A stretch of DNA of 64,000 nt from Ignavibacteriota bacterium (lineage in GTDB: Bacteria > Bacteroidota > Ignavibacteria > UBA10030 > UBA6906): positions 84,171 to 148,170 of the forward strand of contig CAVVIT010000004.1 in assembly GCA_963748405.1 (NCBI GenBank). The letters run 5' to 3'. The position numbers and the translations under genes are program-made. How positions within the stretch are numbered: the stretch's first letter is position 1; every line of letters starts with the position of its first letter. Under the pieces are notes generated by a model, which was not told the DNA's origin, did not search any database, and worked only from the letters and a program-made list of their open reading frames with translations. Below, piece by piece: positions 9,539 through 24,292 of the stretch.

Positions 9539-9581
9539 GCGGTCCGGGACCACATTCTTTCACTATCGTTGTTCGGGGACT

Positions 9582-10517
9582 ATGACCACACAGACACGCG
9601 CCGGCGCGGCCGGGAAGAAATTGAACCTGCACGCGGGCGATCTCGTCCAGGTGAAGAGCTACGAGGAAATCCGCGCGATGCTCGATGCCGACGGAACGTA
9701 CGCGGGTCTCCCGTTCATGCCGGAGATGAGGAAATTCTGCGGGAGAACGGTCCGCGTCGCAAAACGCGCGAACCGGTTCTGCTACGAAGGCTCCCGGATG
9801 AGGATCATGAGCGACACCGTCTTCCTTGAAGGGATGCGGTGCGACGGGGAAGCGCACGACGGCTGCGACAAGGCCTGCATGGTATTCTGGAACGAGGATC
9901 TCCTCCGGCGCGCGGAGGGAGAGCCGACGAACGACCCCTACCCGCCCGAGTCCGCGCTCCCGCCGGCAAAGGACTGGGTGACGAAGGAGGGGGACAGGTA
10001 TTTCTGCCAGTCGTCGCAGCTCGTGAACGCGACGAAGGACTGGCGGCATTCCGATTTCAAGCCGTTCATCGAGGACGTGACGAGCGGGAACATGACCGTG
10101 TGGGAGCTCACGAAAGCCCTCTGGATCACGTTCGCCCGGATGTTCGGGACGCGCTCTTACCTGAAGGTCTGCGGCGACCTCTTCGGCGTCCTTTCGAAGA
10201 CGCCCGGGGTCAGCCTGGGGCTCGAGCCGGGTGACTGGGTCCAGGTCAAGAGCGCCGAAGAGATCATGGCGACGCTCGACAAGGCCGGGCGCAACCGGGG
10301 GATGCAGTTCGCCCCGGAGATGCTGGAGCACTGCGGGAAGAAGTACCAGGTGCTGCACCGCGTCGAGAAGATCATCCTCGAGCGGTCGGGCATGATGCAG
10401 AATCTCAAGGACACGGTGATACTGAAAAACGTCGGGTGCGGCGGCGCCTGCCGCAAGGGGTGCCCGCGCGACACGTACCCGTTCTGGCGCGAGGCGTGGC
10501 TGACCCGCATTCCCTGA
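9582..10517 (+). CDS. hypothetical protein with two tandem homologous Cys-containing domains (unknown function)
   Basis: Residues ~17-110 and ~215-311 align clearly: GDLVQVKSYEEIRAMLDADG...PFMPEM..FCG versus GDWVQVKSAEEIMATLDKAG...QFAPEM..HCG. I do not recognise a family. The coding frame is clean and in operon context. Confidence 0.55.
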   Translation: MTTQTRAGAAGKKLNLHAGDLVQVKSYEEIRAMLDADGTYAGLPFMPEMRKFCGRTVRVAKRANRFCYEGSRMRIMSDTVFLEGMRCDGEAHDGCDKACMVFWNEDLLRRAEGEPTNDPYPPESALPPAKDWVTKEGDRYFCQSSQLVNATKDWRHSDFKPFIEDVTSGNMTVWELTKALWITFARMFGTRSYLKVCGDLFGVLSKTPGVSLGLEPGDWVQVKSAEEIMATLDKAGRNRGMQFAPEMLEHCGKKYQVLHRVEKIILERSGMMQNLKDTVILKNVGCGGACRKGCPRDTYPFWREAWLTRIP

Positions 10518-10549
10518 GAAGCTGAACGAGAAAGGAACGATTGCCGCGC

Positions 10550-11206
10550 ATGCAGAAACTTTCATTCCGGATCCCCGACGGGGCGCCGCTCCGCGTCCTG
10601 GCCCTGGGCGCCCACGCCGATGACATCGAAATCGGGTGCGGGGGGACCATCCTCGAGCTCGCGAAGGCCCACCCGGACCTGAAGATCCACTGGGCCGTGT
10701 TCGGCTCCAACCCCACGCGCGCGGCCGAGGCCAGGGCGTGTGCGGCGCTCTTCCTGCGCGACGTGCATGACAGGAACGTCGTGATCCGGGCGCACCGGGA
10801 CGGCTTCTTCCCGGCGGAATGGGTCGCGATCAAGGAGGAGTTCGAGGAGATTCACCGCGAGTTCGAGCCGGACGTCGTCTTCACGCATTACAGGGACGAC
10901 CGTCACCAGGACCACCGGGTTCTGTCGGACCTCGCCTGGAACACGTTCCGGAACCACCTGATCCTGGAGTACGAGGTCCCGAAATACGACGGCGACCTCA
11001 GCTCGCCGAACTTCTTCGTCCCCCTGTCGGAGGCGAGCAGCGCGGCAAAGGTGAAATACATCCTGGAGTCGTTCCATTCGCAGAGCACGAAGCACTGGCT
11101 GACGGAGGATACGCTCACGGCGCTCCTGAGGCTCCGCGGCATCGAATCGGGAGGCGCATCGCGCCACGCCGAGGCATTTTACTGCAGAAAGGTCCTTCTC
11201 GGATGA
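10550..11206 (+). CDS. PIG-L/LmbE family N-acetylglucosaminyl deacetylase
   Basis: LALGAHADDIEIGCGGT is the PIG-L signature, and the HYRDDRHQDH His/Asp motif is present. An alternative TTG start at 10541 is possible. Confidence 0.8.
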   Translation: MQKLSFRIPDGAPLRVLALGAHADDIEIGCGGTILELAKAHPDLKIHWAVFGSNPTRAAEARACAALFLRDVHDRNVVIRAHRDGFFPAEWVAIKEEFEEIHREFEPDVVFTHYRDDRHQDHRVLSDLAWNTFRNHLILEYEVPKYDGDLSSPNFFVPLSEASSAAKVKYILESFHSQSTKHWLTEDTLTALLRLRGIESGGASRHAEAFYCRKVLLG

Positions 11207-12153
11207 GCACGCCGAGGATCAGCATAGGGATCCCCCTCTACAACGCCGAACGGTACCTCCGCGGCTGCCTCGACGCCGTGGCGGCGCAGACCTGCGGCGA
11301 TTTCGAAGCGGTGATCGCCGACAACGCTTCCACCGACTCCACCGGCGAGATCTGCCGGGAGTACGCCTCCCGTGACCCCCGGTTCCGGTACGTACGGAAC
11401 GAGAAGAACCTGGGCGCCGCGCGCAATTTCAACCTCGTCTTCCAGCTTGCGAAGGGGGAGTACTTCCGCTGGGCGGCCTACGACGACATCATGGCCCCGC
11501 GCGCCCTCGAGGCGTGCGCCGCGGCGCTCGACGCCGACCCGGCCGTCGCGCTTGCATACCCGAAAACCGTGATCATCGACTCCGACGGCGTGGAGATCGA
11601 GCGCTATGACGACTCGTACGTCTTCGCCGACGACGACCCGGCAACGAGGTTCGCTGCGTTTCTCCGGGTGGTCGACCTCCGGAACTGCAACCCGCTGTTC
11701 GGGTTGATGCGCCGTGCGACGCTCGCCAGGACGATGATGCTCGGGAGCTACCATTCGGCCGACAAGGTGCTCCTGGCGCAGATGGTCCTCCTCGGCAAGT
11801 TCGTCGAAGTCCCCGAATATCTCTTTTACCGCCGGTACCACGCGCTCGGCTCGGTCCGCGTGAACAGGACGGCGCAGGCGTTCGCCGCCTGGTTCGACAC
11901 CGGGCGGGCGGGACACAGGGCGTTCCCCCGCTGGCGCCGTCTCGCGGAGCTCCTGAAGTCCATCGGCCGCTCCCGGCTGACGTTCCTGCAGAAGGGGCGC
12001 TGCACGGCCTCGCTCTTTATGTTCTACATGCATCCGGAGAAATGGAAGATGCTCGTCGCCTCCGCGGCGGGGAACGTGGTGGGCCTTTTCTCGGGCAGGC
12101 ACGTGGTGCACGGCAAGCTCGCTGCGCCGGAAGAAACGGCAAAGGCCAAGTAG
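11203..12153 (+). CDS. glycosyltransferase family 2
   Basis: ISIGIPLYNAERYL...VIADNASTDST...YDDIM (DxD) is the GT-A fold GT2 pattern. ATGA overlap with the upstream stop. Confidence 0.8.
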   Translation: MSTPRISIGIPLYNAERYLRGCLDAVAAQTCGDFEAVIADNASTDSTGEICREYASRDPRFRYVRNEKNLGAARNFNLVFQLAKGEYFRWAAYDDIMAPRALEACAAALDADPAVALAYPKTVIIDSDGVEIERYDDSYVFADDDPATRFAAFLRVVDLRNCNPLFGLMRRATLARTMMLGSYHSADKVLLAQMVLLGKFVEVPEYLFYRRYHALGSVRVNRTAQAFAAWFDTGRAGHRAFPRWRRLAELLKSIGRSRLTFLQKGRCTASLFMFYMHPEKWKMLVASAAGNVVGLFSGRHVVHGKLAAPEETAKAK

Positions 12154-12258
12154 TGTGTTCTCCGTGCGGCGCCGGCTCCGGCCGTCCGTCGCGCGGATCG
12201 CTTCACCCGGCGGGGACCCCGCCGGTCCACATCAGGCTTCAACCTTAGGGGAAGGACA

Positions 12259-13374
12259 ATGATAAAATCGGGGAATGAGATCGTCCGTGAAGATCTGGAC
12301 TACATCTGCGCCAACCTTGGCGACGAGTTCGGCCGCATCGCCGGGAAGAACCTCCTCGTCACCGGGGGGGCCGGGTTCCTGGGATTCTACCTGGTGCAGG
12401 GGGCGCTCCACTGGAACACGAAGGTGCCGCCGGCGAAGAAAATCCGCGTGACGGTGTACGACAATTACATCAGGGGGGTTCCCGCGTGGCTGACGGCGCT
12501 CAAGGGGAATCCGGACCTTCGCCTGGTCACGCACAACATGATCCAGCCGCTTCCGCCGGACATGGGCGAGTTTCAGTACATCATCCACGCCGCGGGGATC
12601 GCCTCGCCGATCTACTACCGGCTGCATCCGATCGAGACGATGGACGCCAACATCACGGGCCTCCGGAACCTCCTGGACTATGCGGTCAGGCAGAACGACG
12701 CGGGGAAGACCGTTGAAGGATTCCTGTACTACTCGAGCAGCGAAATCTACGGCGATCCTTCCCCGGAGAACATCCCGACCCCCGAGGATTACCGGGGGAA
12801 CGTGTCGTGCACCGGGCCGCGCGCCTGCTACGACGAGTCAAAACGGTACGGGGAGACGCTCTGCGTCAATTTCGCCAGGCAGCACGGCGTCCACGTCACG
12901 ATGGCGCGCCCGTTCAACAACTACGGGCCGGGACTGAAAATCACCGACAAGAGGGTCCTGCCGGACTTCGCCGCGAACGTCCTGGCCGGGAAGGATATCG
13001 TCATGCTTTCCGACGGATCCCCGAAACGGACGTTCTGTTACTCCGCCGACGCGATCGTCGGCTACTACAAGGTCCTCGTCAGGGGACGGAGCGGTGAGCC
13101 GTACAACGTGGGGGTCGAAACCCCCGAGATCTCGATGTACGAGCTCGCGCAGAAGGTTGTCGCGACCGCGGCCGAGCTCTTCTCCTTCAAGGGGAAGATC
13201 GTCCGCCAGACGAGCGCCGAGAAGGACTACCTCGTCGACAACCCGAACCGCCGGTGCCCCGTCATCGCCAAAGCCAGGAAGGACCTCGCCTACAACCCGA
13301 CGATCCTCGTGGACGAAGGGCTGCGGCGCGCCATGCAGTGGTACAACGACAATCGCCAAGCGGAGGATGCGTAA
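12259..13374 (+). CDS. NAD-dependent epimerase/dehydratase, UDP-glucuronate decarboxylase (UXS/ArnA-C)-like
   Basis: LLVTGGAGFLGFYLV Rossmann, YYSSSEIYGDP, CYDESKRYGE (Y-x3-K), RPFNNYGPG. It lies immediately upstream of ugd, consistent with a UDP-GlcA-consuming enzyme. Confidence 0.65.
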   Translation: MIKSGNEIVREDLDYICANLGDEFGRIAGKNLLVTGGAGFLGFYLVQGALHWNTKVPPAKKIRVTVYDNYIRGVPAWLTALKGNPDLRLVTHNMIQPLPPDMGEFQYIIHAAGIASPIYYRLHPIETMDANITGLRNLLDYAVRQNDAGKTVEGFLYYSSSEIYGDPSPENIPTPEDYRGNVSCTGPRACYDESKRYGETLCVNFARQHGVHVTMARPFNNYGPGLKITDKRVLPDFAANVLAGKDIVMLSDGSPKRTFCYSADAIVGYYKVLVRGRSGEPYNVGVETPEISMYELAQKVVATAAELFSFKGKIVRQTSAEKDYLVDNPNRRCPVIAKARKDLAYNPTILVDEGLRRAMQWYNDNRQAEDA

Positions 13375-14712
13375 ATGAACGTCTCAGTCATCGGTACAGG
13401 CTACGTGGGGATCGTCACGGGCGTCTGCCTTGCGGACAAGGGGCACGCCGTGACGTGCGTGGACGTTGACGCGGAGAAGGTGGAGAGGATACGCAAGGGG
13501 GAACCGCCGATATTCGAAGCGGGACTCGAAGACATGCTGAAGAAAACGATCGGGAAGTCGCTCTTCGCGACGACCGACCTGCGCGCGGCGGTGCTGGAGA
13601 GCCAGGTGACGCTCATCGCCGTCGGCACGCCGTTCGACGGGAAAGAGATCGATCTGACGTTCGTCCGCGAGGTCGCCCGTCAGATCGGCGTCGTCCTGAA
13701 GGAGAAGGGCGCCTATCACGTCGTCGTCGTCAAGAGCACCGTCGTTCCGGGCACGACCGACACGGTCGTGCTGCCGATCCTCGAGGAGGCTTCCGGGAAG
13801 AAGGCCGGGAAGGATTTCGGCGTGGGAATGAACCCGGAGTTTCTCACCGAAGGGCAGGCGATCGACGACTTCATGAAGCCCGACAGGCTCGTGCTGGGCG
13901 GCTGCGATGCGCGCTCGCTGGAAACGCTCGACGCCCTGTACGAGCCGTTCCACGGCGTCCCCCGGCTCCGGACGAACTGCAAAACGGCGGAGATGATCAA
14001 GTACGCCTCCAACTGCATGCTCGCGGTGCAGATTTCGTTCGCCAACGAGCTGGGAAACCTCTGCGCCGCGCTGGGCGGCGTGGACATGGTCGACGTCACG
14101 AAGGGACTGCAGCTGGGATACTACCTCCGGCCCCTCCTGGCGGACGGCACGCCGGTCCAGGCCCCCATCTCCTCGTTCCTGGAGGCGGGGTGCGGGTTCG
14201 GGGGAAGCTGCCTCCCGAAGGACGTCAAGGCGCTCGTTGCCCACGGTGAGAAGGCCGGGCGGGCGATGCCGCTGCTGAACGCCGTCCTCGACATCAACAG
14301 GGAACAGCCGGGGCGCACCGTCGCGATCCTGAAGAAGCATTACCCGTCGCTCCGCGGCGTGCGCGTTGCGGTCCTGGGACTGGCGTTCAAGCCCGATACG
14401 GACGACATGAGGGAGTCTCCCGCGATACCGATCGTCCGGCAGCTCGCCGCCGAAGGCGCTGTGCTCCAGGCATACGACCCGGTCGCGATGAAGGAAGCCC
14501 GGAAGATCTTCCGCGACGTCCCGATCATGATGTGCTCCGGGCTCGAGGAGGCCCTGAAGAACGTCGATGCGGCGATCATCGTGACCCGGTGGAACGAATT
14601 CAAGCGCGTGCCGGAACTCCTCGCGCGTCTCCGGCCGCAGCCGCTCCTGATCGACGGGCGCCGGATGCTCGACAAGTCCGCGGTCGCCAGGTACGAGGGG
14701 ATCGGGGTCTGA
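13375..14712 (+). CDS. ugd: UDP-glucose 6-dehydrogenase / nucleotide-sugar dehydrogenase
   Basis: MNVSVIGTGYVGIVTGVCLA N-terminus, GGSCLPKD catalytic Cys motif, and the C-terminal UDP-binding domain. ATG immediately follows the upstream TAA. Confidence 0.9.
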   Translation: MNVSVIGTGYVGIVTGVCLADKGHAVTCVDVDAEKVERIRKGEPPIFEAGLEDMLKKTIGKSLFATTDLRAAVLESQVTLIAVGTPFDGKEIDLTFVREVARQIGVVLKEKGAYHVVVVKSTVVPGTTDTVVLPILEEASGKKAGKDFGVGMNPEFLTEGQAIDDFMKPDRLVLGGCDARSLETLDALYEPFHGVPRLRTNCKTAEMIKYASNCMLAVQISFANELGNLCAALGGVDMVDVTKGLQLGYYLRPLLADGTPVQAPISSFLEAGCGFGGSCLPKDVKALVAHGEKAGRAMPLLNAVLDINREQPGRTVAILKKHYPSLRGVRVAVLGLAFKPDTDDMRESPAIPIVRQLAAEGAVLQAYDPVAMKEARKIFRDVPIMMCSGLEEALKNVDAAIIVTRWNEFKRVPELLARLRPQPLLIDGRRMLDKSAVARYEGIGV

Positions 14713-14774
14713 TTTCCCCCTCCCGCACCGGCACCGCACACACCAGGAACAGGAAACCAGAAAAAAGGAGTACT

Positions 14775-16031
14775 ATGGCAGGACAGGCGTCATCCCCGGC
14801 ACGAGGCTGTTTATTCTGCGGCACACCCCTGCGCCACACGTTCGTGGACCTCGGGCTCTCACCCCTGTGCGAGACGTTCATCAGGGAAGACGAGCTTGAC
14901 AACAGGGAGCCGTTTTACCCTCTCCACGTGTTCGTGTGCGAGAAGTGCTTTCTCGTCCAGCTGCACGAGTACGTCAGTCCGGCCGACATCTTCACGGAAT
15001 ACGCGTACTTCTCCTCGTACTCCGACACGTGGGTCCAGCACGCGAAGAAGTACGTCGACATGATCACGGAGCGCCTGCACCTGGGTCCGAAGAGTTTCGT
15101 CGTCGAGCTGGCGAGCAACGACGGATACCTCCTGCAGCACTACCTGCCGAAGGGGATCCCCGTGCTCGGCGTCGAGCCCGCCGCCAACGTCGCGAAGGTC
15201 GCCGTGGAACAGCGGAAGGTCCCGACGCTCGTGAAGTTCTTCGGCGTGAACACCGCGAAGGAGCTCGTCGCGCAGGGGAAACAGGCGGATCTCATCTCGG
15301 GGATCAACGTCCTGGCCCAGGTGCCGGACATCAACGATTTCGTCGAGGGGATCAGGATCCTCCTGAAGCCGGGGGGCGTGATGACGATCGAATTCCCTCA
15401 CCTGCTCCGGCTCATGAACGAAAACCAGTTCGATACGATCTACCACGAACATTTCTTCTACTTCTCGTTCATGACGGCCGAAACGATCTTCGGGGCGCAC
15501 GGGCTGACGCTCTTCGACGTGGAAGAGCTCCCGTCGCACGGCGGCTCGCTCCGCATTTACGGCCGCCACGAGGCCGACGCGACGAAGCCGGTCACCGAGC
15601 GCGCGCTGGCGCTGAAGCAGCGGGAGCTCGCCGCGGGACTCAGGACGCTCGCGGCTTACGGCTCGTTCGCCGAACAGGTGAAGGAGACGAAGCGGGGGAT
15701 CCTGGATTTCCTGATCCGGGCGAAGCGCGAAGGGAAGAAGATCGTCGGGTACGGCGCGCCGGGGAAAGGGAACACGCTCCTGAACTACTGCGGGATCCGC
15801 GAGGATTTTCTCGATTTCACGGTGGACCGGAACACGTACAAGCACGGAAAATACACCCCGGGGACGCACATCCCGATCTTTGACCCTTCGAAGATCCGGG
15901 AAGCGAAACCGGATTATCTCTTCATCCTGCCGTGGAACCTGAAGTCCGAGATCGTCTCGCAGATGGGGTTCATCAGGGACTGGGGGGGGAAATTCGTGAT
16001 TCCCATTCCGCGCATCGAGGTGATCGATTGA
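14775..16031 (+). CDS. SAM-dependent sugar C-methyltransferase family protein (zinc-ribbon + class I MTase + C-methyltransferase C-terminal domain)
   Basis: N-terminal CLFCGTPL...C..C..C zinc-binding-like segment, an MTase fold (VVELASNDGYLL), and a C-terminal domain KIVGYGAPGKGNTLLNYCGI typical of TylCIII-like NDP-hexose C-methyltransferases. AAGGAG RBS before ATG. Confidence 0.7.
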   Translation: MAGQASSPARGCLFCGTPLRHTFVDLGLSPLCETFIREDELDNREPFYPLHVFVCEKCFLVQLHEYVSPADIFTEYAYFSSYSDTWVQHAKKYVDMITERLHLGPKSFVVELASNDGYLLQHYLPKGIPVLGVEPAANVAKVAVEQRKVPTLVKFFGVNTAKELVAQGKQADLISGINVLAQVPDINDFVEGIRILLKPGGVMTIEFPHLLRLMNENQFDTIYHEHFFYFSFMTAETIFGAHGLTLFDVEELPSHGGSLRIYGRHEADATKPVTERALALKQRELAAGLRTLAAYGSFAEQVKETKRGILDFLIRAKREGKKIVGYGAPGKGNTLLNYCGIREDFLDFTVDRNTYKHGKYTPGTHIPIFDPSKIREAKPDYLFILPWNLKSEIVSQMGFIRDWGGKFVIPIPRIEVID

Positions 16032-16065
16032 CCGCCCCTGTCCCGCGCAGAAGGGAGAGGTCCTC

Positions 16066-17346
16066 GTGATCGACACGGCGCTCGCCCTCCGTGAAAAGGA
16101 GGGGAAACCGATCCGCGTCGCCATGGTCGGGGCGGGGTTTGCCGGCCGGATGATCGCGCTCCATCTCGTCGCCGTTCCCGGCATCCGGCTCGCCGCCGTG
16201 GTCAACAGGAACCCCGCGCACGCGGAGGAAGCGTTCCGCGACGCGGGGGTCGCGCGCGTGAGGACGGTGGAGCGGAGCGACGAGCTCGACGCCGCCGTCG
16301 GGCGCGGAGAGTGCGCCGTGACGACGGACCACCGCGCGGTATGCGGCGCGAAGACGATCGACGCCGTCATCGAGGTGACGGGGACCGTCGAGTACGGGGC
16401 CCGGGTCGTTCTTGACGCGGTCGCCGGGAGGAAACACGTCATCCTCGTGAACGCCGAGCTCGATGCGACGCTCGGGCCGGTCCTGAAGCGCTATGCGGAC
16501 AAATCGGGGGTGATCCTGACGGACACGGACGGCGACGAGCCGGGGGTCGCGATGACGCTCCTGCGTTATCTCCGCTCCATCGGGCTCCGCACGGTCGCCG
16601 CGGGGAACCTTAAGGGGCTCCTCGACAGGCGGAGGACGCCGGCGACGCAGAAGGAGTTCGCGGAAAAGACCGGGCAGGATCCAATGAAGGTCACGTCGTT
16701 TGCCGACGGGACGAAGCTCTCGATGGAGGCGGCGGTCCTGGCGAACGCGGCGGGGTTCGGCGTCGGGGTGCGGGGAATGTTCGGACCGCGCGCGCAGCAC
16801 GTGAACGAGATGGCACGCCTGCTCCCGGCGGAGGCCATGCTGGCGGGCGGGATCGTCGATTTTGCGCTGGGCGCCGAGCCCCATACCGGGGCGTTCGTCG
16901 TCGTCCACGAAAGCGGCGCCCTGAAGGTGGAGCGCCTGAAGTACTTCAAGATGGGGGACGGGCCGTTTTTCGTCTTCTATACGCCGTTCCACCTTCCGCA
17001 GGTCCAGGTCGCTTCGACCGTGGCGCGGGCCGTCCTGTTTGCGGACGCCACCGTGGCGCCCGCGGGGCCGCCCCGCTGTGAGGTGATCACGATGGCAAAA
17101 CGGGACCTCCGGGAGGGGACGCGCATCGACGGCCTCGGGGGATACGACATATACGGCACGATCGATAATGCCTCCGTCGCGGCGGCGGGACGGCTCCTGC
17201 CGGCCGGCGTCGCCGAAGGGTGCACGCTCAGGCGTGACGTGGCGCGGGATGAGCCGTTGACCTACGACGACATCGCGCTCCCGGCGGGGCGCCTCTGCGA
17301 CAGGCTGCGCGGCGAACAGGAAGTATTGTCTCACTCCTCTCTGTGA
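16066..17346 (+). CDS. NAD-binding oxidoreductase with C-terminal SAF-like domain (COG4091, predicted homoserine-dehydrogenase-like)
   Basis: IRVAMVGAGFAGRMIALHL Rossmann N-terminus. Overall architecture resembles the homoserine-dehydrogenase-like/SAF proteins found in sugar loci. GTG start. Confidence 0.55.
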   Translation: MIDTALALREKEGKPIRVAMVGAGFAGRMIALHLVAVPGIRLAAVVNRNPAHAEEAFRDAGVARVRTVERSDELDAAVGRGECAVTTDHRAVCGAKTIDAVIEVTGTVEYGARVVLDAVAGRKHVILVNAELDATLGPVLKRYADKSGVILTDTDGDEPGVAMTLLRYLRSIGLRTVAAGNLKGLLDRRRTPATQKEFAEKTGQDPMKVTSFADGTKLSMEAAVLANAAGFGVGVRGMFGPRAQHVNEMARLLPAEAMLAGGIVDFALGAEPHTGAFVVVHESGALKVERLKYFKMGDGPFFVFYTPFHLPQVQVASTVARAVLFADATVAPAGPPRCEVITMAKRDLREGTRIDGLGGYDIYGTIDNASVAAAGRLLPAGVAEGCTLRRDVARDEPLTYDDIALPAGRLCDRLRGEQEVLSHSSL

Positions 17347-17362
17347 ACGAAAGGGACTGGCG

Positions 17363-18160
17363 ATGAAAGTAGTGCTCTTCTGCGGCGGGCTCGGCACGCG
17401 CATGCGCGATTTCTCCGAGTCGATCCCCAAGCCGATGGTGACGATCGGGTACCGTCCGATCATCTGGCACGTCATGAAATACTACGCGCACTTCGGCCAC
17501 AAGGATTTCATCCTCTGCCTGGGATACAAAGCCGACGTGATCAAGAATTATTTCCTGAAATACGACGAATGCATCTCGAACGACTTCGTCCTCTCCAACG
17601 GCGGGGGACAGGTCGACCTCCTGGCGCGCGATATCAGCGACTGGAAGATCACGTTCGTCGACACGGGAGTCCATTCCAACATCGGGATGCGGCTCAAGGC
17701 GGTGGAGAAGCACCTCGAGGGAGAGAAGGCGTTTTTCGCGAACTACACCGACGGCCTGACCGACCTGAACCTCAACGATGAGTACGCGTTCTTCGAGAAG
17801 CACGACAAGATCGCCTGTTTCGCGGGAGTCCGGCCGACACAGTCGTTCCATCTGGTGAACACGGACGGCCCGCTCGTCACCGGCATCCAGCACGTCGTCG
17901 ACTCCGGCGTCCGGATCAACGGCGGATTCTTCATATTCAAGCACGACATTTTCAAATATATGCGCGAAGGGGAGGAGCTCGTCATCACCCCGTTCCACCG
18001 CCTGATCGCCGAGAAGCAGCTTCTCGCCTATCCGTACGACGGCTTCTGGGCGTGCATGGACACGTTCAAGGAGCGGCAGATGCTCGACGACATGTACTCA
18101 CGCGGCGAAACGCCCTGGGAAGTCTGGAAGGGGCACGGGAAACAATCATTACAGAAATAA
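17363..18160 (+). CDS. rfbF: glucose-1-phosphate cytidylyltransferase (CDP-glucose pyrophosphorylase)
   Basis: MKVVLFCGGLGTRMRDFSESIPKPMVTIGYRPIIWHVMKYYAHFGHKDFILCLGYKADVIKNYF aligns closely along its length with RfbF/DdhA (MKAVILAGGLGTRL...KPKPMVEIGGKPILWHIM...). Confidence 0.9.
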   Translation: MKVVLFCGGLGTRMRDFSESIPKPMVTIGYRPIIWHVMKYYAHFGHKDFILCLGYKADVIKNYFLKYDECISNDFVLSNGGGQVDLLARDISDWKITFVDTGVHSNIGMRLKAVEKHLEGEKAFFANYTDGLTDLNLNDEYAFFEKHDKIACFAGVRPTQSFHLVNTDGPLVTGIQHVVDSGVRINGGFFIFKHDIFKYMREGEELVITPFHRLIAEKQLLAYPYDGFWACMDTFKERQMLDDMYSRGETPWEVWKGHGKQSLQK

Positions 18161-19366: not shown

Positions 19367-20138
19367 ACACGATCGCGTTACGCTTCTCGGGTGCCCACTT
19401 GACCTCGTCGATTTCGAAGAGGCCGCCTCCTGGTGCTTCGACGCCGCGCGCGCGAAGGGGAGCCCGGCGCAGCTCGTCACCGTCAACGCACAGAGCCTCC
19501 TGATGATGCGCGACGATCCGGCGATGGATCGTGCGATCAGGGAGGCGGCGATGGTCGTCGCGGACGGCGCGTCGATGGCCCTGGCGGCCCGGATCCTCCG
19601 GCTTCCCTGGAAAGGGCGCGTCACCGGCGTCGACCTGATGGCGCGTCTTCTGCGCGACGGGTCGTCGCGCGGACTGAAGGTGTATTTTCTCGGCGCCACG
19701 GACGTCGTGCTCGACCGGCTGCTGGCCGTCACGCGCGAGCGGCACCCGGGTCTCGTCGTGGCGGGGTACCGGAACGGGTATTTCGACAGGGAAAAAGACG
19801 GGGAAGTCATCGACGCTATCCGCGCTTCGGGCGCGGACGTGCTGTTCGTGGGGATGCCGACCCCCTTCAAGGAGGTCTGGCTCCACAGGAATCTTTCCCG
19901 GTTCGGCGCCGGGCTCGTCATCGGCGTGGGGGGGACGTTCGACGTTCTCGCCGGGCTCGTGCCCCGCGCGCCCGTCTGGATGCAGCGGGCGGGACTCGAA
20001 TGGTCCTGGCGTTTGATGATGGAACCCCGTAAACTCTGGAAACGGAATCTCGTGTACAATTCGCGGTTCGTGGCCCTTCTCCTGCGGGAGAGGATCCTGC
20101 ACGGGCGGGCGCGCGTCGAAACGGCGGTGGGCAGGTGA
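19356..20138 (+). CDS. WecB/TagA/CpsF family glycosyltransferase (GT26)
   Basis: LLGCPLDLVDFEEA...LVTVNAQSLLMM...VADGASMALAARIL...GVGGTFDVLAG are GT26 signatures. Confidence 0.8.
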   Translation: MSSEHDRVTLLGCPLDLVDFEEAASWCFDAARAKGSPAQLVTVNAQSLLMMRDDPAMDRAIREAAMVVADGASMALAARILRLPWKGRVTGVDLMARLLRDGSSRGLKVYFLGATDVVLDRLLAVTRERHPGLVVAGYRNGYFDREKDGEVIDAIRASGADVLFVGMPTPFKEVWLHRNLSRFGAGLVIGVGGTFDVLAGLVPRAPVWMQRAGLEWSWRLMMEPRKLWKRNLVYNSRFVALLLRERILHGRARVETAVGR

Positions 20139-20512
20139 AAAAAGTCCTGATTATCGATGACGATGAGATGCACCTCGTCCTTGTCCGGCAGATACTGGAC
20201 AGGGAGGAATGCACCGTCCTTTCGACCGCCGACGGACCCCACGGCATTACCCTGTACAGGGACCACCGCCCGGAACTCGTCCTCCTGGATCTCGGGCTGC
20301 CGAGCATGAACGGCATCGACGTCCTGAAAGAGATCCGGAAGATCGACAGGAACGCGAAAGTCATCGTCGTGACGGGGTATGCCTCGAGCGAGACGGCCAA
20401 CATCGCCGAGCGCAACGGGGCACTGGAGGTACTGCAGAAGCCGATCGAATTCAGAACGTTTCTCGAGAAGATCAGACGCGCGCTGAATCTGCCCGAGGCG
20501 CAGGATCAATAA
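20135..20512 (+). CDS. single-domain response regulator receiver (CheY-like)
   Basis: KVLIIDDDEM...LVLLDLGLPSMNGIDVLKEIRK...KVIVVTGYAS carries the conserved Asp pocket and Lys of REC domains. There is no output domain and no kinase nearby. GTG start overlaps the upstream stop. Confidence 0.8.
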   Translation: MKKVLIIDDDEMHLVLVRQILDREECTVLSTADGPHGITLYRDHRPELVLLDLGLPSMNGIDVLKEIRKIDRNAKVIVVTGYASSETANIAERNGALEVLQKPIEFRTFLEKIRRALNLPEAQDQ

Positions 20513-20566
20513 GGTTCTCCCCAGTCATCAGTCGTCTGTCCCCCCCGGATTGATCCCGAGAAAATC

Positions 20567-21889
20567 ATGGTATCGCATTCCGGAACGCCAGGTCAGGATT
20601 CGCCGCAGCTTCGGATCTCGGTGGTTTCCGCCGATGCCGACCTTGCCAGCCTGGAGGGGGAATGGAATGCCCTGTTCGCATCGGCGAACTCGTCCGTGTT
20701 CCAGTCGTACGAGTGGGCGGCGGCGTGGTGGAAGCACTTCCGGAACGGCCGCGAGCTCTACTGCCTCTGCTTCCGGTCCGGGGAGCGCCTCGTGGGGCTC
20801 GCGCCTCTCTGCCGGAGGACCGTCACGTTCCTCGGCATCCCGCTCTTCCGTCTCCTGGAATTCCTCGGACGGCCGCACGCCGACTATCTCGACATCATCG
20901 TCCTTCCGGGGTTCGGCGTTCCCGTCGTCGAAGCTTTCGTCGCCCATATCGCCTCCGGGGAGGCACACATCGACCTCCTCGACCTCGAAGAGATCCCCCC
21001 CTGGTCGCTTCTGAAAGAGCACATCGCGGCGCCGGCCGCGGCCTCCGGGATGAAGGCCGTCGTCGACAGGGGCCCGGCCTGCCCGTATATCCCCCTCCCC
21101 GGGACGTTCGATGAATTCCTCGCCGCGCTCGGCCCCAACACGCGGTACAACTACAGGCGCAAGTGGACGCGCCTGAGGGGGGGACACGCCGTCACCGAGC
21201 GCCTCGTGCGGGGAAGCGGCGAAGACGTGCCGGCCGCCCTCCGTTCGTTCATGAAGATCCACGGGGACCGGTGGAAGGGACTCGGATTTCCGAGCGCGTT
21301 CGACAATCCCATCGAGAGAGGTTTCTTCGAGGACATGACGCGCGGATTCGCCCGGAGGGACTGGCTCCGCATATTTCTCCTGGAGGTGGACGGCGTCGAC
21401 GTGGCGGCCAGCCTGGAATTTCTGTACCGGGGGCGCGCCTACATGTACCACTGCAACGCCACGGGCCCCGACGACGTGATGCGCTGCAGCCCGGGCCTTC
21501 TCGTGAAGATCTTCGCCATCCGCTCCGACATAGGGGAGGAGATGCGCGAGTACGACATGCTCAGGGGGGAGGAGAGCTACAAGTACGAGCACCTGAAAGC
21601 TCTCGAGCGGTTCAACAGCACGCTCCGGATGCCCGCGCTCCTTCCCGGGAGCAGCCTCCGGTTCCGCGTGTTCCTCCTCTGGCTTCTCGCCAGAAAATCG
21701 TTCGGCCGCACGAAGCTCGAGTATTATCAATGGCGCCGGTTCACGATTACGAAGAACCCGGGGGGGAAGGAGAAACTGGACTACCTCTTCCGCAGGATCG
21801 CCGAGGTCGGGCACATGGCGCTGCACTTCATCCGCGTCTATTTTGCCGGGGCCCCGCCCGCCGGCGAAAGCCCCGATGCTCACGATTGA
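20567..21889 (+). CDS. FemAB/CelD-like GNAT acyltransferase family protein (paralog 1)
   Basis: VFQSYEWAAAWWKHF..., the LDLEEIP middle region and YMYHCNATGPD resemble BioF2/CelD/FemAB-like (PEP-CTERM-associated FemAB-type) proteins. Unlike paralogs 2-4 it lacks the SELTRSDQ tail. Confidence 0.7.
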   Translation: MVSHSGTPGQDSPQLRISVVSADADLASLEGEWNALFASANSSVFQSYEWAAAWWKHFRNGRELYCLCFRSGERLVGLAPLCRRTVTFLGIPLFRLLEFLGRPHADYLDIIVLPGFGVPVVEAFVAHIASGEAHIDLLDLEEIPPWSLLKEHIAAPAAASGMKAVVDRGPACPYIPLPGTFDEFLAALGPNTRYNYRRKWTRLRGGHAVTERLVRGSGEDVPAALRSFMKIHGDRWKGLGFPSAFDNPIERGFFEDMTRGFARRDWLRIFLLEVDGVDVAASLEFLYRGRAYMYHCNATGPDDVMRCSPGLLVKIFAIRSDIGEEMREYDMLRGEESYKYEHLKALERFNSTLRMPALLPGSSLRFRVFLLWLLARKSFGRTKLEYYQWRRFTITKNPGGKEKLDYLFRRIAEVGHMALHFIRVYFAGAPPAGESPDAHD

Positions 21890-23066
21890 ACCGGTGACCA
21901 CAGACCGGGAGTTCTCCGCGCTGGCTCCCGACTGGAACTCCGTCCTCGCCGCTTCCGGCCGGCGGTCTCTCTACCTGACGCACGAATGGCTCGACGCCTG
22001 GTGGCGCACGCACGGGGCCCCGGGGAGCGAGCTGTGCATACTCGTCGTCCGGGACGAACAGGGGATCGCCGCGCTGGCGCCGCTCGTCCGTGTGACCCGC
22101 CGGTACCTCGGCGTCCCGGTGCGGATGATCGAATTCCTCTCGATGTCGATGTATGCCGACCATCCCGCTGCGGTGACAGGAACGCTTGACTGGATCATCC
22201 GGAGGGATCCCCTCCCGGTGATCGGCGCGCTCATCGACCACCTCCTCCGCGGGAGAGACACCTGGCAGGCCCTCCGGCTCCATCCCGTCCCTTCCGACTC
22301 GCCGTACCTGCCGCTCCTGGTCGGCGAGGCGGCGCGCCGCGATTGCACCGTCGACCGGCGGCACGTGCTCGATAACGCGGTGATCGACTGCGGCCAGGGG
22401 TGGGACCGGTTCTTCGGCGGCCTCACCGGGGACTTCCGCCGTACGCTCAGGCGGAGGGGTGAGAACCTGGCGAAGATTGGAGCGGTCGCCTTCAGCAGGA
22501 TCGACGCACTGGAGACCGCCGGTATGTTCCGCCGGCTGCTCGACGTCGAGCGGCGGAGCTGGAAGTGGGAGAGGGGGGTGAGTCTCAATTCCGCCGCGTA
22601 CGGCGATTTCTTCCCGGAGTTCGCGCGCACGGCGGCCGGGCGCGGGTGGCTTCGCACGTGGGTTCTCTCGCTCGGGGAGGAGGACATCGCCTACGAGCTC
22701 TGCGTAACATTCCAGGGCGAGCTTCACTGCCTGAAAAAGAGCTACGATGCGCGCTACAGCACTGCATTTCCGGGGGGGCTTCTCGAGCGCCGCATTTACG
22801 AGGATGCGTTCCGGGACGGGATCATCCGCATTCACACGCTCTGGGGAGATGAAGCTCACAAGCTCCGCTGGCACTCGGCGCTCGAGCCCCACGAAGAACT
22901 CCTCCTCTTCCACGATGCTCCCGCCTCCCGGAGCGCGCGAGCGTTCCTGCTCGGCGCAAAAGCCCCGCGCTTACACAGAGAGGTGGCCGAAGCGGGCAAA
23001 CGCGCTCTCCGGCGGGCCGGTCTTCACCCGCGGTGTTCCGAACTGACGCGAACGGACCAGCTGTGA
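21876..23066 (+). CDS. FemAB/CelD-like GNAT acyltransferase family protein (paralog 2)
   Basis: LYLTHEWLDAWWRTHG..., ERRSWKWERG, and the C-terminal ...PRCSELTRTDQL tail. Start chosen at MLTIEP, overlapping the paralog-1 stop by 14 nt. Confidence 0.7.
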   Translation: MLTIEPVTTDREFSALAPDWNSVLAASGRRSLYLTHEWLDAWWRTHGAPGSELCILVVRDEQGIAALAPLVRVTRRYLGVPVRMIEFLSMSMYADHPAAVTGTLDWIIRRDPLPVIGALIDHLLRGRDTWQALRLHPVPSDSPYLPLLVGEAARRDCTVDRRHVLDNAVIDCGQGWDRFFGGLTGDFRRTLRRRGENLAKIGAVAFSRIDALETAGMFRRLLDVERRSWKWERGVSLNSAAYGDFFPEFARTAAGRGWLRTWVLSLGEEDIAYELCVTFQGELHCLKKSYDARYSTAFPGGLLERRIYEDAFRDGIIRIHTLWGDEAHKLRWHSALEPHEELLLFHDAPASRSARAFLLGAKAPRLHREVAEAGKRALRRAGLHPRCSELTRTDQL

Positions 23067-24292
23067 GCGCCGCCGGTGCACACGGTACGGACGCACCGCC
23101 GCTCACCGTGACGGAGTATGGAACGGCGGACGGGTTCGCGCAACTCGAGGGTGTATGGAACGGGCTCCTTCGCTCCTCTCCCGCCCCTTCGCTCTACATG
23201 TCGTTCGAGTGGCTGCGGGCGTGGTGGGAGTGCTTCGGCGGCGGAAAGAGACGGCTCAGAATCCTCGGCGTGTCGGCGGGTGAGCGGACGATCGCGATCG
23301 CGCCGTTCATGGAGGTGCGGAGGCGGTTTCTCGGGATGCCCTACAGGACGATCGAGTTCATCTCGTCGCGCGATTACGCATTCTCGCACCTGACGATGTC
23401 GGGCATACTCGACGTCATTGCCCCCCCTGACGCCGAAGAAGCGGTCGACGCGGTCCTGCGTCACCTGCTCTCCGCCGGGGAGGACTGGGCGTTCATGAGG
23501 CTGGAGCCTCTTGCCGGTGAAGGGGTCGTCCGGCGCGTCCTCGAGGCGCGGGCGGCGGCCTTCGGGCTTCATGTGAAGGAGGGAGATACATTCGAGGCGT
23601 ACGAGGCGGAACTCGGTCCGGGGTGGGAAGCCCGCCGGATGGGGCCGGAGTCGCACCGCCGGGATCCGTCAGGGGCATTGAATGAGAAGCTCAGAAAGCA
23701 GGGGGAGATCACGTGGGAGGACACAGACGGGAGCGGCGGCCCGGAATTGCTGTTCGGGACGCTCCTCGACATCGAGCGGAGAAGCTGGAAGTGGAACCGC
23801 GGCCTGAGCATCAACGCGCTCGGCTACGGGGGGTTTTATCCCCTCTTCCTGCAATCCGCCGCCGGGAACCGCACGCTGAGGGTCACGCTCCTGAACATCG
23901 ACGGGCGCCCCGTGGCATATGTCTTCAGCGCACTGTTCGGCGGAACGCTGGAGGCGCTGAAGACCGCATATGACGGCTCGTTCGCCCGGAGTTCGCCCGG
24001 ACGTGCGGCTCTCTGGCACCACGTGCAGCAGGCCGCCGCCGAAGGGATCTCTCGCGTGAACCTGCACATCGGATCGAAGGAGTATAAATCCGAGTGGGCC
24101 ACCGGCTCCCGGATGTACACCGAGCTTTTCCTCCTTCGAACGTCAGCGCGGGGAAAGATCATCGGATTCCTTCTCTTCACGCTCGGTCTGTACGGCAGGT
24201 TTCGATTCATCCCGGATCTCACAAAGCGGGTCCTGCGGCGGCTCGGGTTCACGCCCCGCTGGTCGGAGCTCACGCGCTCAGATCAGGTCTGA
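23033..24292 (+). CDS. FemAB/CelD-like GNAT acyltransferase family protein (paralog 3)
   Basis: LYMSFEWLRAWWECFG, ERRSWKWNRG, and the C-terminal ...PRWSELTRSDQV tail. An alternative GTG start at 23063 overlaps the paralog-2 stop (GTGA). Confidence 0.7.
   Translation: MFRTDANGPAVSAAGAHGTDAPPLTVTEYGTADGFAQLEGVWNGLLRSSPAPSLYMSFEWLRAWWECFGGGKRRLRILGVSAGERTIAIAPFMEVRRRFLGMPYRTIEFISSRDYAFSHLTMSGILDVIAPPDAEEAVDAVLRHLLSAGEDWAFMRLEPLAGEGVVRRVLEARAAAFGLHVKEGDTFEAYEAELGPGWEARRMGPESHRRDPSGALNEKLRKQGEITWEDTDGSGGPELLFGTLLDIERRSWKWNRGLSINALGYGGFYPLFLQSAAGNRTLRVTLLNIDGRPVAYVFSALFGGTLEALKTAYDGSFARSSPGRAALWHHVQQAAAEGISRVNLHIGSKEYKSEWATGSRMYTELFLLRTSARGKIIGFLLFTLGLYGRFRFIPDLTKRVLRRLGFTPRWSELTRSDQV

Follow-up and report, generated by a model that had tools for sequence, protein, structure and literature searches.

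A candidate CDP-linked 3-C-methyl sugar cassette containing a DXR-II-like oxidoreductase in a polysaccharide locus of an Ignavibacteriota bacterium

In the window, by which we mean the whole 64 kb stretch of DNA that was analysed, positions 12259 to 18160 appear to make up a single operon-like module whose product, a CDP-activated sugar with a methyl branch at C3, would feed the surrounding Wzx-dependent polysaccharide locus. We put this best explanation, taken as a whole, a little short of an even chance. What is established is which protein families are present, that their catalytic motifs are conserved, and how often the cassette genes occur together; the chemical steps, the nucleotide and the regiochemistry are predicted from homology and context. 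The genes of the module, and two that lie upstream of it, are as follows.

9582-10517, + strand: cassette-associated protein of 311 aa, soluble, internally duplicated and Cys-rich (sequence features)
10541-11206, + strand: PIG-L/LmbE-family deacetylase that constantly accompanies CT in relatives (PF02585, 62.6 bits)
12259-13374, + strand: UXS/ArnA-type NDP-glucuronate decarboxylase-like SDR (SDR1), candidate 4-keto-sugar generator (UXS1 match, motifs)
13375-14712, + strand: Ugd-like nucleotide-sugar 6-dehydrogenase, cassette component (three UDPG_MGDP_dh domains)
14775-16031, + strand: NDP-sugar 3-C-methyltransferase (CMT) of the TylC3/TcaB9/MtmC/KijD1 family (PF08421, class I methyltransferase domains, PF08484; PDB matches)
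16066-17346, + strand: DXR-II-like oxidoreductase (DLO), PF21135 DRL_cat plus SAF-like C-terminal domain, putative NADPH-dependent C4 ketoreductase on CDP-4-keto sugars (domain and structure matches, orthologue cassette context)
17363-18160, + strand: RfbF-like sugar-1-phosphate cytidylyltransferase (CT), probably glucose-1-phosphate-specific (TIGR02623, RfbF 1tzf, orthologue context)

The last three genes were the subject of the original prediction, and all three are real plus-strand ORFs in the window sequence. Each has a Shine-Dalgarno-like sequence and a short gap, with 34 nt between CMT and DLO and 16 nt between DLO and CT. The prediction also held that no CDP-glucose 4,6-dehydratase is adjacent, and a profile search found none there or anywhere else in the 64 kb.

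CMT (418 aa) matches the PF08421 zinc-binding domain at 81.8 bits and the PF08484 C-methyltransferase C-terminal domain at 216.6 bits, along with class I methyltransferase domains. Among solved structures, its closest relatives are without exception NDP-sugar 3-C-methyltransferases: MtmC (4rv9, 287 bits), KijD1 (5t64, 228 bits) and TcaB9 (3ndi, 223 bits). In TcaB9 numbering, the four zinc cysteines, Tyr76 and Tyr222-x-Glu224-His225 are kept, and Gln stands in place of His181. By structure matches and active-site residues the protein groups with sugar 3-C-methyltransferases and not with lipid or small-molecule ones, which bears out the earlier call of a TylCIII-like sugar C-methyltransferase. 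Of 45 metagenome loci with its orthologues (64-72% identity), 37 have the same cytidylyltransferase beside them and only 5 show a link to RmlB.

CT (265 aa) aligns with TIGR02623, the glucose-1-phosphate cytidylyltransferase model, along its whole length (positions 1-255 of 255); the score, 215.5 bits, is below the cut-off of 300.25. Salmonella RfbF (1tzf) matches at 170 bits, and the aligned Thr14, Arg15, Lys25, Arg111, Asp131 and Asp236 are kept. The gene had been called a clear RfbF; it is RfbF-like over its full length, but "clear" was slightly overstated for a sub-threshold score on sequence alone. The CT orthologues adjoin a bona fide, TIGR02622-positive CDP-glucose 4,6-dehydratase in 33 genomes, so a CDP-activated C-methylated sugar is the best reading. 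The predicted hexose could be a pentose. Two points weigh against the pathway that we propose: the change of His181 to Gln in CMT, and the score of CT below the curated RfbF threshold.

DLO (426 aa) matches PF21135 DRL_cat best, at 138.5 bits. Two weaker matches, to the homoserine-dehydrogenase NAD-binding domain (NAD_binding_3, 23.7 bits) and to SAF (20.5 bits), fall slightly below their cut-offs, so the original description, a homoserine-dehydrogenase-like NAD-binding protein with a SAF domain (COG4091), was right in outline, and DXR-II/DRL-like oxidoreductase is the better name. The protein scores 226 bits against the Brucella DRL structure 3upl, and an AlphaFold model of DLO (pLDDT 90) superposes on that structure with a TM of 0.93 over the whole-length fold. 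Core residues Asp143, Asp167, Asp225, Lys228 and Glu232 are common to DLO and DXR-II, and Arg48 follows beta-strand 2, as expected of an NADP(H) enzyme. In DLO, Asn181, Leu218 and Phe239 take the places of Lys191, Thr229 and His250, which anchor the substrate in DXR-II. Judged by its sequence, the window DLO is a separate subfamily, 33% identical to Brucella DXR-II and about 32-33% to Coxiella DLO1. We know of no member of the DLO family with an assigned function or substrate. DLO1 and DLO2 are the uncharacterised clades of Carretero-Paulet et al. 2013, and the DLO representatives tested gave no dxr complementation (PMC3847144).

We collected DLO orthologues (53-61% identity) from 82 species-representative genomes, with 84 fetched loci. 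These show a recurrent cassette of RmlC-like epimerase, DLO, cytidylyltransferase and PIG-L, to which is added either a CDP-glucose 4,6-dehydratase or a pair of genes for Ugd and a UXS-like protein. The co-occurrence statistics come from loci that are not phylogenetically independent, and the DLO tree was built by neighbour joining without bootstrapping. An RmlC-like gene occurs in 77/84 fetched loci and ends at most 300 nt upstream of DLO in 61/82; three Latescibacteria/Krumholzibacteria genomes have the epimerase-DLO pair on its own, an arrangement that is also common for rmlC-rmlD pairs. A cytidylyltransferase gene accompanies DLO in 72 of the 84 loci. PIG-L is found in 65/84 DLO loci and 33/45 CMT loci, and immediately adjoins CT in 41/71. 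The 311 aa protein had zero Pfam or NCBIfam matches in a profile search; 18 DLO loci and 7 CMT loci carry a homologue.

C-methyltransferases of this kind and RmlC-like epimerases both act at C3 of NDP-4-keto sugars. The four complete DLO loci with no epimerase (the window, L005, L051 and L069, placed at three points of the DLO tree) all have a C-methyltransferase, against 2/76 of the epimerase-bearing loci (Fisher p = 9e-6, uncorrected for phylogeny). Since epimerase and methyltransferase coexist in 33/45 CMT-type cassettes, this replacement is specific to DLO cassettes. The gene combination had been called unusual, and it is: a methyltransferase is present in about 6/82 DLO loci, and DLO is next to CMT orthologues in 0/45 metagenomic loci, which makes the window a rare hybrid.

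In 33 DLO loci the adjoining SDR reaches 465 bits against TIGR02622 (CDP-glucose 4,6-dehydratase; cut-off 278). The Ugd and SDR1 genes, directly upstream of the three-gene set in the window, have counterparts in 25 other DLO loci, and the 26 loci with the pair and the 33 with the dehydratase show zero co-occurrence (p = 2e-8, with phylogenetically non-independent loci). The pair sits between DLO and CT, in the same slot as the 4,6-dehydratase, in three loci (L021, L036, L071), and the two types of locus interleave at least 4 times on the DLO tree. Because of this mutual exclusion, the pair may supply the otherwise missing 4-keto sugar, and the product could then be a pentose. The original prediction took these genes as a separate UDP branch, which is probably wrong, as the pair is a fixed part of the cassette in relatives.

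The Ugd-like protein scores 418 bits on TIGR03026 but does not reach the equivalog cut-offs for AglM and TuaD; it has 291 bits against the UDP-glucose dehydrogenase BceC and 258 bits against the GDP-mannose dehydrogenase AlgD. SDR1 matches human UXS1 at 164 bits and has motifs of the decarboxylase type, SSSEIYG (S-S-E) and YDESK. The best scores of both are to UDP-sugar enzymes and, to our knowledge, CDP-glucuronate has never been described, so the keto-generation step is the weakest link. Neither the 4,6-dehydratase nor the pair lies within 8 kb in 21 DLO loci, so the generator can be encoded elsewhere or be another enzyme (e.g. SDRc25 or an FAD oxidase).

The pathway that we propose, to which we would give slightly less than an even chance, would start with CT joining CTP and glucose-1-phosphate to give CDP-glucose. 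The Ugd/UXS-like pair would then stand in for the CDP-glucose 4,6-dehydratase of sister cassettes, and we favour 6-oxidation followed by UXS/ArnA-like oxidative decarboxylation to a CDP-4-keto-pentose. CMT, with SAM, would methylate C3 through the enolate beside the 4-keto group, filling the place held by the RmlC-like epimerase in nearly all related cassettes. Finally, DLO with NADPH would reduce C4, doing the work of RmlD or the C. jejuni C4-reductase HS41.18 without being an SDR. The type B cassette (the 33 loci with the 4,6-dehydratase) matches the C. jejuni HS:41 pathway and DLO is the sole candidate for its reductase slot; on this ground we infer that C4 ketoreduction in the CDP-sugar pathway is the task of DLO, which is related to an alternative isoprenoid enzyme. 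The product would be a D-series CDP-3-C-methyl sugar, a pentose by this route or a 6-deoxyhexose if a 4,6-dehydratase is encoded elsewhere.

That last variant keeps the same CDP, C-methyl and DLO logic but makes the Ugd/UXS-like pair an independent supply of UDP-xylose or UDP-uronate, with a CDP-glucose 4,6-dehydratase outside the window and a CDP-3-C-methyl-6-deoxyhexose of the evalose/virenose type as product. The best matches of Ugd and SDR1, to UDP-glucose dehydrogenases and UXS, fit it, as do the 21 DLO cassettes with no keto generator in cis. We also know of no characterised 3-C-methyltransferase of this family whose substrate is other than a 6-deoxy-4-keto sugar. We nevertheless consider it unlikely, though a serious candidate, because the pair and the 4,6-dehydratase are strictly exclusive and positionally equivalent across 59 loci and the CDP-type dehydratase is absent from all 64 kb. 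A dTDP-sugar substrate for CMT can also be imagined, since the window has two further genes in a different block 17 kb downstream of the three-gene set:

34471-34944, + strand: small RmlC-like cupin (PF00908, 42.3 bits)
34948-35961, + strand: true dTDP-glucose 4,6-dehydratase RmlB (TIGR01181, 504 bits, cut-off 365)

These are a possible alternative source of 4-keto sugar. The original prediction counted three nucleotide carriers; the dTDP-type genes are indeed present, but the count is more than sequence alone can establish. If CMT methylated dTDP-4-keto-6-deoxyglucose from this RmlB, as TylC3, MtmC and TcaB9 do, its position by DLO and CT would be incidental. All of its solved homologues use dTDP sugars. 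However, its orthologues lie beside CT in 37/45 loci and near RmlB in 5/45, a search of the 64 kb window found no RmlA, and the gaps from CMT through CT are 34 and 16 nt, so we hold this to be very improbable.

The remaining alternatives concern DLO. It might keep DXR-like reductoisomerase chemistry, with a retro-aldol/aldol or alpha-ketol shift of an NDP-4-keto sugar and reduction of the new exocyclic carbonyl, to give a ring-contracted branched furanose (cf. dihydrostreptose, dihydrohydroxystreptose, apiose). Its sole solved relative is a DXP reductoisomerase with the same catalytic-domain core residues, and by chemical reasoning the formation of streptose from a 4-keto sugar is formally equivalent to the rearrangement of DXP to methylerythrose phosphate. 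The Coxiella DLO lies beside CBU1838, a 3,5-epimerase assigned to dihydrohydroxystreptose synthesis, a pathway to which no ring-contracting enzyme has yet been assigned (PMC9095892; 2026 review). On the other side, DLO is the only possible C4 reductase in type B cassettes and plain reduction is enough there, the tested representatives fail to complement dxr (PMC3847144), and the Coxiella protein is only 32% identical to the window DLO. No sequence feature separates a rearranging enzyme from a plain reductase, and we regard rearrangement as improbable. Still less credible is the view that DLO belongs with the homoserine dehydrogenases as a paralogue or serves as a functional DXR-II in the MEP pathway, for which the weak NAD_binding_3 match, a PRK06349 score of 34.9 bits and the 33% identity to Brucella DXR-II might speak. 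The PRK06349 cut-off is 205, and His250 is replaced along with Lys191 and Thr229, the fosmidomycin/phosphate anchors of DXR-II (residue roles from PMC3847144). All 82 orthologue loci have a polysaccharide or NDP-sugar context, and no Thr/Met or MEP genes were seen near the orthologues, including the Thr/Met context that the original prediction had raised for COG4091-like relatives. The window DLO is not a homoserine dehydrogenase, and it is not a DXP reductoisomerase either.

The closest known system to the C4-reduction pathway that we prefer is C. jejuni HS:41 (HS41.17-HS41.21), which makes CDP-6-deoxy-L-altrofuranose and CDP-D-fucofuranose with a biochemically proven cytidylyltransferase, 4,6-dehydratase, 3,5-epimerase, NADPH C4-reductase and FADH2 mutase (Simons, Narindoshvili and Raushel 2025, PMC12369002). 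The proposed pathway would share the RfbF-type start, a CDP-4-keto sugar tailored at C3/C5 and NADPH reduction of C4, and type B, with cytidylyltransferase, dehydratase, epimerase, DLO and flavoprotein, is an enzyme-for-enzyme match. The window differs in having a DRL_cat protein and not an SDR in the C4-reductase slot, a C-methyltransferase for the epimerase, and the Ugd and decarboxylase-like pair with neither 4,6-dehydratase nor mutase-like flavoprotein. SDR1 shares the S-S-E and YxxxK decarboxylase signature of UXS, ArnA and Ralstonia U4kpxs and is translationally abutted to the 6-dehydrogenase, but it has only 164 bits to UXS1, a 30-residue N-terminal extension, and a place inside a 4,6-dehydratase-exclusive CDP-sugar cassette.

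CMT has the three-domain architecture, zinc site and Tyr/Glu/His motif of TylC3, TcaB9, MtmC and KijD1 (223-287 bits), but its context suggests a CDP-linked substrate, it lies in an exopolysaccharide locus and not an antibiotic cluster, and TcaB9 His181 is Gln. DLO shares the whole-length fold and core residues of Brucella DXR-II/DRL (3upl, 3upy) but has neither the phosphonate anchors Lys191 and Thr229 nor a MEP context; like the DLO1 clade (PMC3847144), it has a hydrophobic residue at position 229. In the Coxiella burnetii O-antigen region, the candidate dihydrohydroxystreptose genes cbu1834-cbu1838 form a block with an NTP-transferase, the RmlC-like CBU1838, an SDR, flavoproteins and a DRL_cat protein, but the transferase is RmlA-like (dTDP), the DLO is only 32% identical, and there is no C-methyltransferase or PIG-L. 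The Deinococcus ficus plasmid pDFI2 has a Coxiella-like DAO/SDR/RmlC/DLO set plus rfbF. By annotation, the Anabaena PCC 7120 HEP island (alr2825-alr2841) has the glucose-1-phosphate cytidylyltransferase alr2825, the epimerase/dehydratase alr2827, rfbC alr2830 and, immediately following, the NAD(P) oxidoreductase alr2831 (PMC4390870); it differs in having no C-methyltransferase. A DLO1 is listed for Nostoc sp. PCC 7120, and accession numbering and gene order suggest that it is alr2831.

The window has a GC content of ~62%, and its stretch from 1.7 to 27 kb is a single co-directional polysaccharide locus with glycosyltransferases, a Wzx flippase, a PIG-L deacetylase, sugar-nucleotide enzymes, WecG and four FemAB-like genes. 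The closest relative is a locus from a Bacteroidota MAG (L005), whose proteins are 84–96% identical; this relative and a T9SS sorting-domain protein in the window point to Bacteroidota as the source. The original prediction had singled out three consecutive genes here as a CDP-hexose branch, and we found them at exactly the coordinates it gave; we call them CMT, DLO and CT. The features discussed below are:

9582–10517, 311-aa soluble protein
10541–11206, PIG-L/LmbE deacetylase
12259–13374, UXS/ArnA-type decarboxylase-like SDR (the window SDR)
13375–14712, 6-dehydrogenase (Ugd)
14775–16031, C-methyltransferase (CMT)
16066–17346, DXR-II-like oxidoreductase (DLO)
17363–18160, RfbF-like cytidylyltransferase (CT)
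20135–26605, receiver-only response regulator, then four FemAB-like (PF13480) paralogues interleaved with a GT2
30657–31826, T9SS sorting-domain protein
34471–35961, small RmlC-like cupin (PF00908, 42 bits), then a bona fide dTDP-glucose 4,6-dehydratase (504 bits)
35789–49145, second polysaccharide gene block
56793–56867, minus strand, tRNA-Arg(tcg)
58154–60286, BT4734-like_N/DUF5906 protein, after the tRNA

CMT, DLO and CT are separated by gaps of 34 and 16 nt, with Shine-Dalgarno-like sequences. A promoter and terminator scan of window positions 9–21 kb gave the same counts as shuffled sequences and is uninformative on operon structure. As predicted, a CDP-glucose 4,6-dehydratase is not adjacent, and we found none anywhere in the 64-kb window. 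RmlA and RmlD were not detected within the window either. The second polysaccharide block holds an SLBB export protein, Wzz, a Wzy_C ligase/polymerase, a flippase, a DegT-type aminotransferase, two Bac_transf initiating transferases and several GT2 genes. GC falls from ~0.61 to 0.48–0.54 at the tRNA, and 56793–64000 is probably a mobile element integrated at tRNA-Arg(tcg).

CT aligns with TIGR02623 over its full length (1–255 of 255) and scores 215.5 bits, under the equivalog cut-off of 300.25. In an alignment with 1tzf, it keeps Thr14, Arg15, Lys25, Arg111, Asp131 and Asp236 of Salmonella RfbF, residues with catalytic, phosphate-binding and Mg-binding roles. It differs from RfbF at positions 178–179, which are Glu-Lys in RfbF. 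The prediction of a "clear" RfbF was therefore slightly too strong on sequence grounds.

CMT had been called a sugar C-methyltransferase, and we agree. Its zinc ribbon matches PF08421 (81.8 bits) with a CxxC...CxxC pattern aligned to the zinc cysteines of TcaB9, its SAM domain matches PF13489 (46.8 bits), and its C-terminal domain covers PF08484 completely (216.6 bits, profile positions 1–160 of 160). The best solved relatives are MtmC, KijD1 and TcaB9. Of the TcaB9 active-site residues Tyr76, His181, Tyr222, Glu224 and His225, CMT keeps Tyr76 and the Tyr-x-Glu-His in the alignment but has Gln at the His181 position. From its solved relatives and the TcaB9 alignment, we rejected a non-sugar methyltransferase. 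Enzymes of this family methylate an NDP-4-keto sugar at C3, and for CMT the gene context indicates that the substrate is CDP-linked.

A metagenome search from the CMT side gave 575 confirmed relatives, and we counted neighbors in the best 45 loci that span 6 kb or more, where CMT is 64–72% identical. These had an RmlC-like gene in 33 loci, PIG-L in 33 and RmlB in 5. Because CT occurs in 37 of the 45, a GalE/RmlD-like SDR ("SDRc25") in 29 and DLO in none, we conclude that the CMT lineage is a regular part of CDP-sugar cassettes with an SDR as its normal partner. The pairing of CMT with DLO in the window is a rare recombinant. In CMT-type cassettes the space between epimerase and CT often holds a DUF4910/DUF2172/HTH_47 protein together with a classical short-chain dehydrogenase, as at 11321–13881 of locus L114.

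DLO had been described as homoserine-dehydrogenase-like; we rejected the reading as an actual homoserine dehydrogenase. It reaches 34.9 bits on NF004976, whose cut-off is 205, in an alignment limited to the N-terminal Rossmann part, and no Thr/Met gene context was seen in 82 orthologue loci. The best description is PF21135 (DRL_cat, 138.5 bits). The AlphaFold model (pLDDT 90) has a Foldseek TM of 0.93 to 3upl, the next PDB neighbors are at about TM 0.4, and the Brucella DXR-like enzyme is the sole close solved relative. Lys191, Lys193, Thr229 and His250 of Brucella DXR-II correspond to Asn181, Lys183, Leu218 and Phe239 in DLO; the first three are invariant across 12 aligned orthologues, and the His250 position is Phe, His, Tyr or Leu. 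In DXR-II, Lys191, Lys193 and Thr229 are substrate and fosmidomycin anchors and His250 is conserved (PMC3847144). Carretero-Paulet et al. gave Leu/Ile/Val at position 229 as the signature of an uncharacterised "DLO1" clade, and the DLO clade representatives that were tested did not complement a dxr mutant (PMC3847144). We also rejected a DXR-II function for DLO, since the Lys191 and Thr229 anchors are changed and all 82 of 82 orthologue loci have a polysaccharide or NDP-sugar context, with no MEP genes seen. DLO is ~33% identical to Brucella DXR-II and equally to Coxiella DLO1, and therefore forms its own subfamily. Like the NADPH-dependent enzyme of Brucella, DLO has an arginine (Arg48) at the end of beta-strand 2, consistent with a reductase in biosynthesis.

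The subfamily is large. A word-indexed search with DLO gave 7814 proteins with E <= 1e-10 (the best 120 of them 57–100% identical), from Acidobacteriota, Verrucomicrobiota, Gemmatimonadota, Alphaproteobacteria, Chloroflexota, Bacteroidota and Deinococcus, and the whole superfamily totals 345 clusters (50% identity, E <= 1e-30). DLO1 and DLO2 were reportedly split from the Brucella isoprenoid enzyme in 2010–2013 and have been "uncharacterised oxidoreductases" since; the S. griseus DLO1 may lie in the streptomycin cluster. In the literature on COG4091, DLO1, CDP-linked C-methyltransferases and vinelose, we found no functional study of the DLO family.

Our context scan for DLO, with one genome per species, gave 80 loci with orthologues 53–61% identical plus L005 at 84%. 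The hosts are Acidobacteriota, Verrucomicrobiota, Gemmatimonadota, Chloroflexota, Planctomycetota, Bacteroidota and Alpha-, Beta-, Gamma- and Deltaproteobacteria. We mapped the window proteins onto 84 fetched DLO loci and found an RmlC-like epimerase in 77, CT (52–76% identical) in 72 and PIG-L in 65, but a C-methyltransferase in only 5. In 61 of 82 loci, DLO follows the end of the epimerase gene by at most 300 nt. Unsupervised clustering of all neighboring ORFs resolved two main cassette versions. Type A (25 loci and the window) has a UXS-like SDR, Ugd, epimerase, DLO, CT and PIG-L, whereas type B (33 loci) has epimerase, DLO, another SDR, a flavoprotein, CT and PIG-L. With 465 bits on TIGR02622 (cut-off 278) and a TSDKCY motif, the SDR of type B proves to be a genuine CDP-glucose 4,6-dehydratase, so that CT orthologues sit with this enzyme in 33 loci; the window has no such gene. 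The dehydratase of type B is the strongest evidence that CT, despite its score, makes CDP-glucose and that DLO acts on CDP-sugars. The c8 flavoprotein, SDRc25 and DAO-type oxidase of sister cassettes are absent from the window.

Other genes recur with these cassettes. PIG-L is a near-constant partner of CT and directly adjacent in 41 of 71 loci; the inferred CDP-sugar pathway has no step calling for a de-N-acetylase. The 311-aa protein at 9582–10517 had no match in Pfam or NCBIfam. Its two halves resemble each other, and both contain a Cys cluster (CDGEAHDGCDKAC in one and CGGACRKGCPRD in the other). Homologues recur in 18 of the DLO loci and in 7 of the C-methyltransferase loci, and the protein may belong to CDP-sugar cassettes as a component or transferase that has so far gone unnoticed. 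FemAB-like and exosortase (XrtC) genes recur near DLO cassettes of other phyla, a hint that these exopolysaccharides contain an aminoacylated amino sugar.

The methyltransferase appears to take the place of the epimerase. The window, L005 and two Acidobacteriota loci (L051 and L069) have CMT and no epimerase, and they are all four of the complete epimerase-less DLO loci; only L050 and L028 have both genes (Fisher's test p = 9e-6, with relatedness ignored). The four lie at three places on a neighbor-joining DLO tree. RmlC-type epimerases and TylC3-type methyltransferases both act via the C3 enolate of a 4-keto sugar. Because of this swap and the shared use of the enolate, we argue that the common intermediate is a CDP-4-keto sugar. 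L028, a Bacteroidota type B cassette that retains the epimerase, has its divergent C-methyltransferase-like gene (11279–12505) between DLO and CT, with Methyltransf_23 and a partial PF08484; Pfam finds no zinc domain in it.

Where the 4-keto group comes from in the window is less certain. The window SDR carries the S-S-E and YxxxK residues that mark UDP-glucuronate decarboxylases, has human UXS1 as its best match and abuts Ugd, which scores 291 bits to UDP-glucose dehydrogenase versus 258 bits to GDP-mannose dehydrogenase, a difference not decisive for the nucleotide. The Ugd/SDR pair (26 DLO loci) and the CDP-glucose 4,6-dehydratase (33) never occur together (p = 2e-8), in L021, L036 and L071 the pair lies between DLO and CT, the slot of the type B dehydratase, and the two types interleave at least 4 times on the neighbor-joining DLO tree. 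These three observations suggest that the pair functionally replaces the dehydratase. We therefore favour a route in which Ugd and the window SDR would carry out a 6-oxidation followed by a decarboxylation to a 4-keto-pentose, and the window product would be a CDP-3-C-methyl-pentose. We regard this route and product as uncertain, since we know of no CDP-glucuronate, xylose is a common exopolysaccharide sugar, and 21 DLO loci have neither the 4,6-dehydratase nor the Ugd/SDR pair nearby. The main alternative is that a 4,6-dehydratase is encoded elsewhere and the product is a 3-C-methyl-6-deoxyhexose.

No NDP-4-keto sugar can act as a donor until it has been reduced or transaminated, and type B cassettes hold no candidate reductase besides DLO. 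We therefore infer from this comparison that DLO is probably a C4 ketoreductase, which would reduce the C4 keto group of a CDP-4-keto sugar. In three Latescibacteria/Krumholzibacteria MAGs (L063, L064 and L026, ~9440–11284), an RmlC-like gene and DLO stand alone as a pair between rsmG and parAB, among the housekeeping genes mnmE, mnmG, rsmG, parA and parB, and no cytidylyltransferase or SDR lies within 8 kb. Such a lone pair, as rmlC-rmlD pairs can be, fits a C4 ketoreductase. The DLO sequence by itself does not separate a reductase from a reductoisomerase, and we kept the second role in view because ring contraction of the streptose type amounts formally to the DXR rearrangement. We think it unlikely that the DRL_cat proteins of these cassettes are DXR-like reductoisomerases that turn nucleotide-4-keto sugars into ring-contracted branched furanoses. 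If they were, the Coxiella homologue would be the long-sought dihydrohydroxystreptose synthase, DLO acting on a C3-methylated keto sugar in the window would give a CDP-sugar with a two-carbon (1-hydroxyethyl-type) branch, and exopolysaccharide loci of soil bacteria would, in their thousands, specify sugars of the streptose or apiose kind that composition analyses have overlooked.

In Coxiella burnetii (L085, 8765–15518), a DRL_cat gene (11621–12877) lies between an RmlD-like SDR (cbu1837-type) and an amine-oxidase-fold flavoprotein, in the order CBU1838, SDR, DRL_cat, flavoprotein, with a DAO-type oxidase upstream and an RmlA-like transferase downstream. CBU1838 is a demonstrated 3,5-epimerase, probably for a 6-hydroxylated substrate on the way to dihydrohydroxystreptose, and the 4-oxidase and ring-contracting synthase still lack assigned genes (PMC9095892). 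A 2026 review gives the genes of this region no function. The Coxiella DRL_cat gene is a new candidate for one of these two steps, the 4-oxidation or the ring contraction, in a pathway to a virulence-linked O-antigen sugar. Deinococcus ficus plasmid pDFI2 (L166, 5307–10302) has rfbF, a DAO-type FAD oxidase (annotated lhgO), an SDR, rfbC and DLO, the last annotated as "SAF domain-containing protein" by the NCBI annotation pipeline. It shares DAO, SDR, RmlC and DLO with the Coxiella block, differs in being led by rfbF, and is a cultured carrier convenient for experiments. The annotation of the Anabaena HEP island lists a G1P cytidylyltransferase, rfbC and, next to rfbC, an NAD(P) oxidoreductase that may be the listed Nostoc DLO1.

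The window and its relatives thus place a large DLO subfamily inside CDP-sugar tailoring cassettes. This context predicts reduction of CDP-4-keto sugars, with substrates obtainable with published C. jejuni enzymes, and nominates a non-SDR protein for a step that textbooks give to SDRs. It also suggests a decarboxylative route to CDP-4-keto-pentoses, which is not known to have been described before. The CDP-linked C-methyl sugar of the original prediction is still the best reading of the window module, with every step drawn from homology and comparative context; what changes is that DLO would be the C4 reductase and that the Ugd/UXS-like pair, predicted to be a separate UDP branch, is probably part of the same CDP-sugar module. 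The window itself would yield a CDP-linked 3-C-methyl sugar, a type for which we know of no gene assignments.

A characterised template is C. jejuni HS:41, for which the Raushel laboratory described in 2025 the synthesis of CDP-6-deoxy-L-altrofuranose and CDP-D-fucofuranose by five enzymes: a glucose-1-phosphate cytidylyltransferase, a CDP-glucose 4,6-dehydratase, a 3,5-epimerase, an NADPH C4-reductase and an FADH2 mutase (PMC12369002). Type B cassettes match this set with one gene per step, provided that DLO serves as C4-reductase and the amine-oxidase-fold flavoprotein as mutase. The window cassette has only CT of the five and no dehydratase, epimerase, SDR reductase or mutase, so it is like HS:41 in logic but not a member. 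It is a form of NDP-4-keto-sugar tailoring, which is itself already known.
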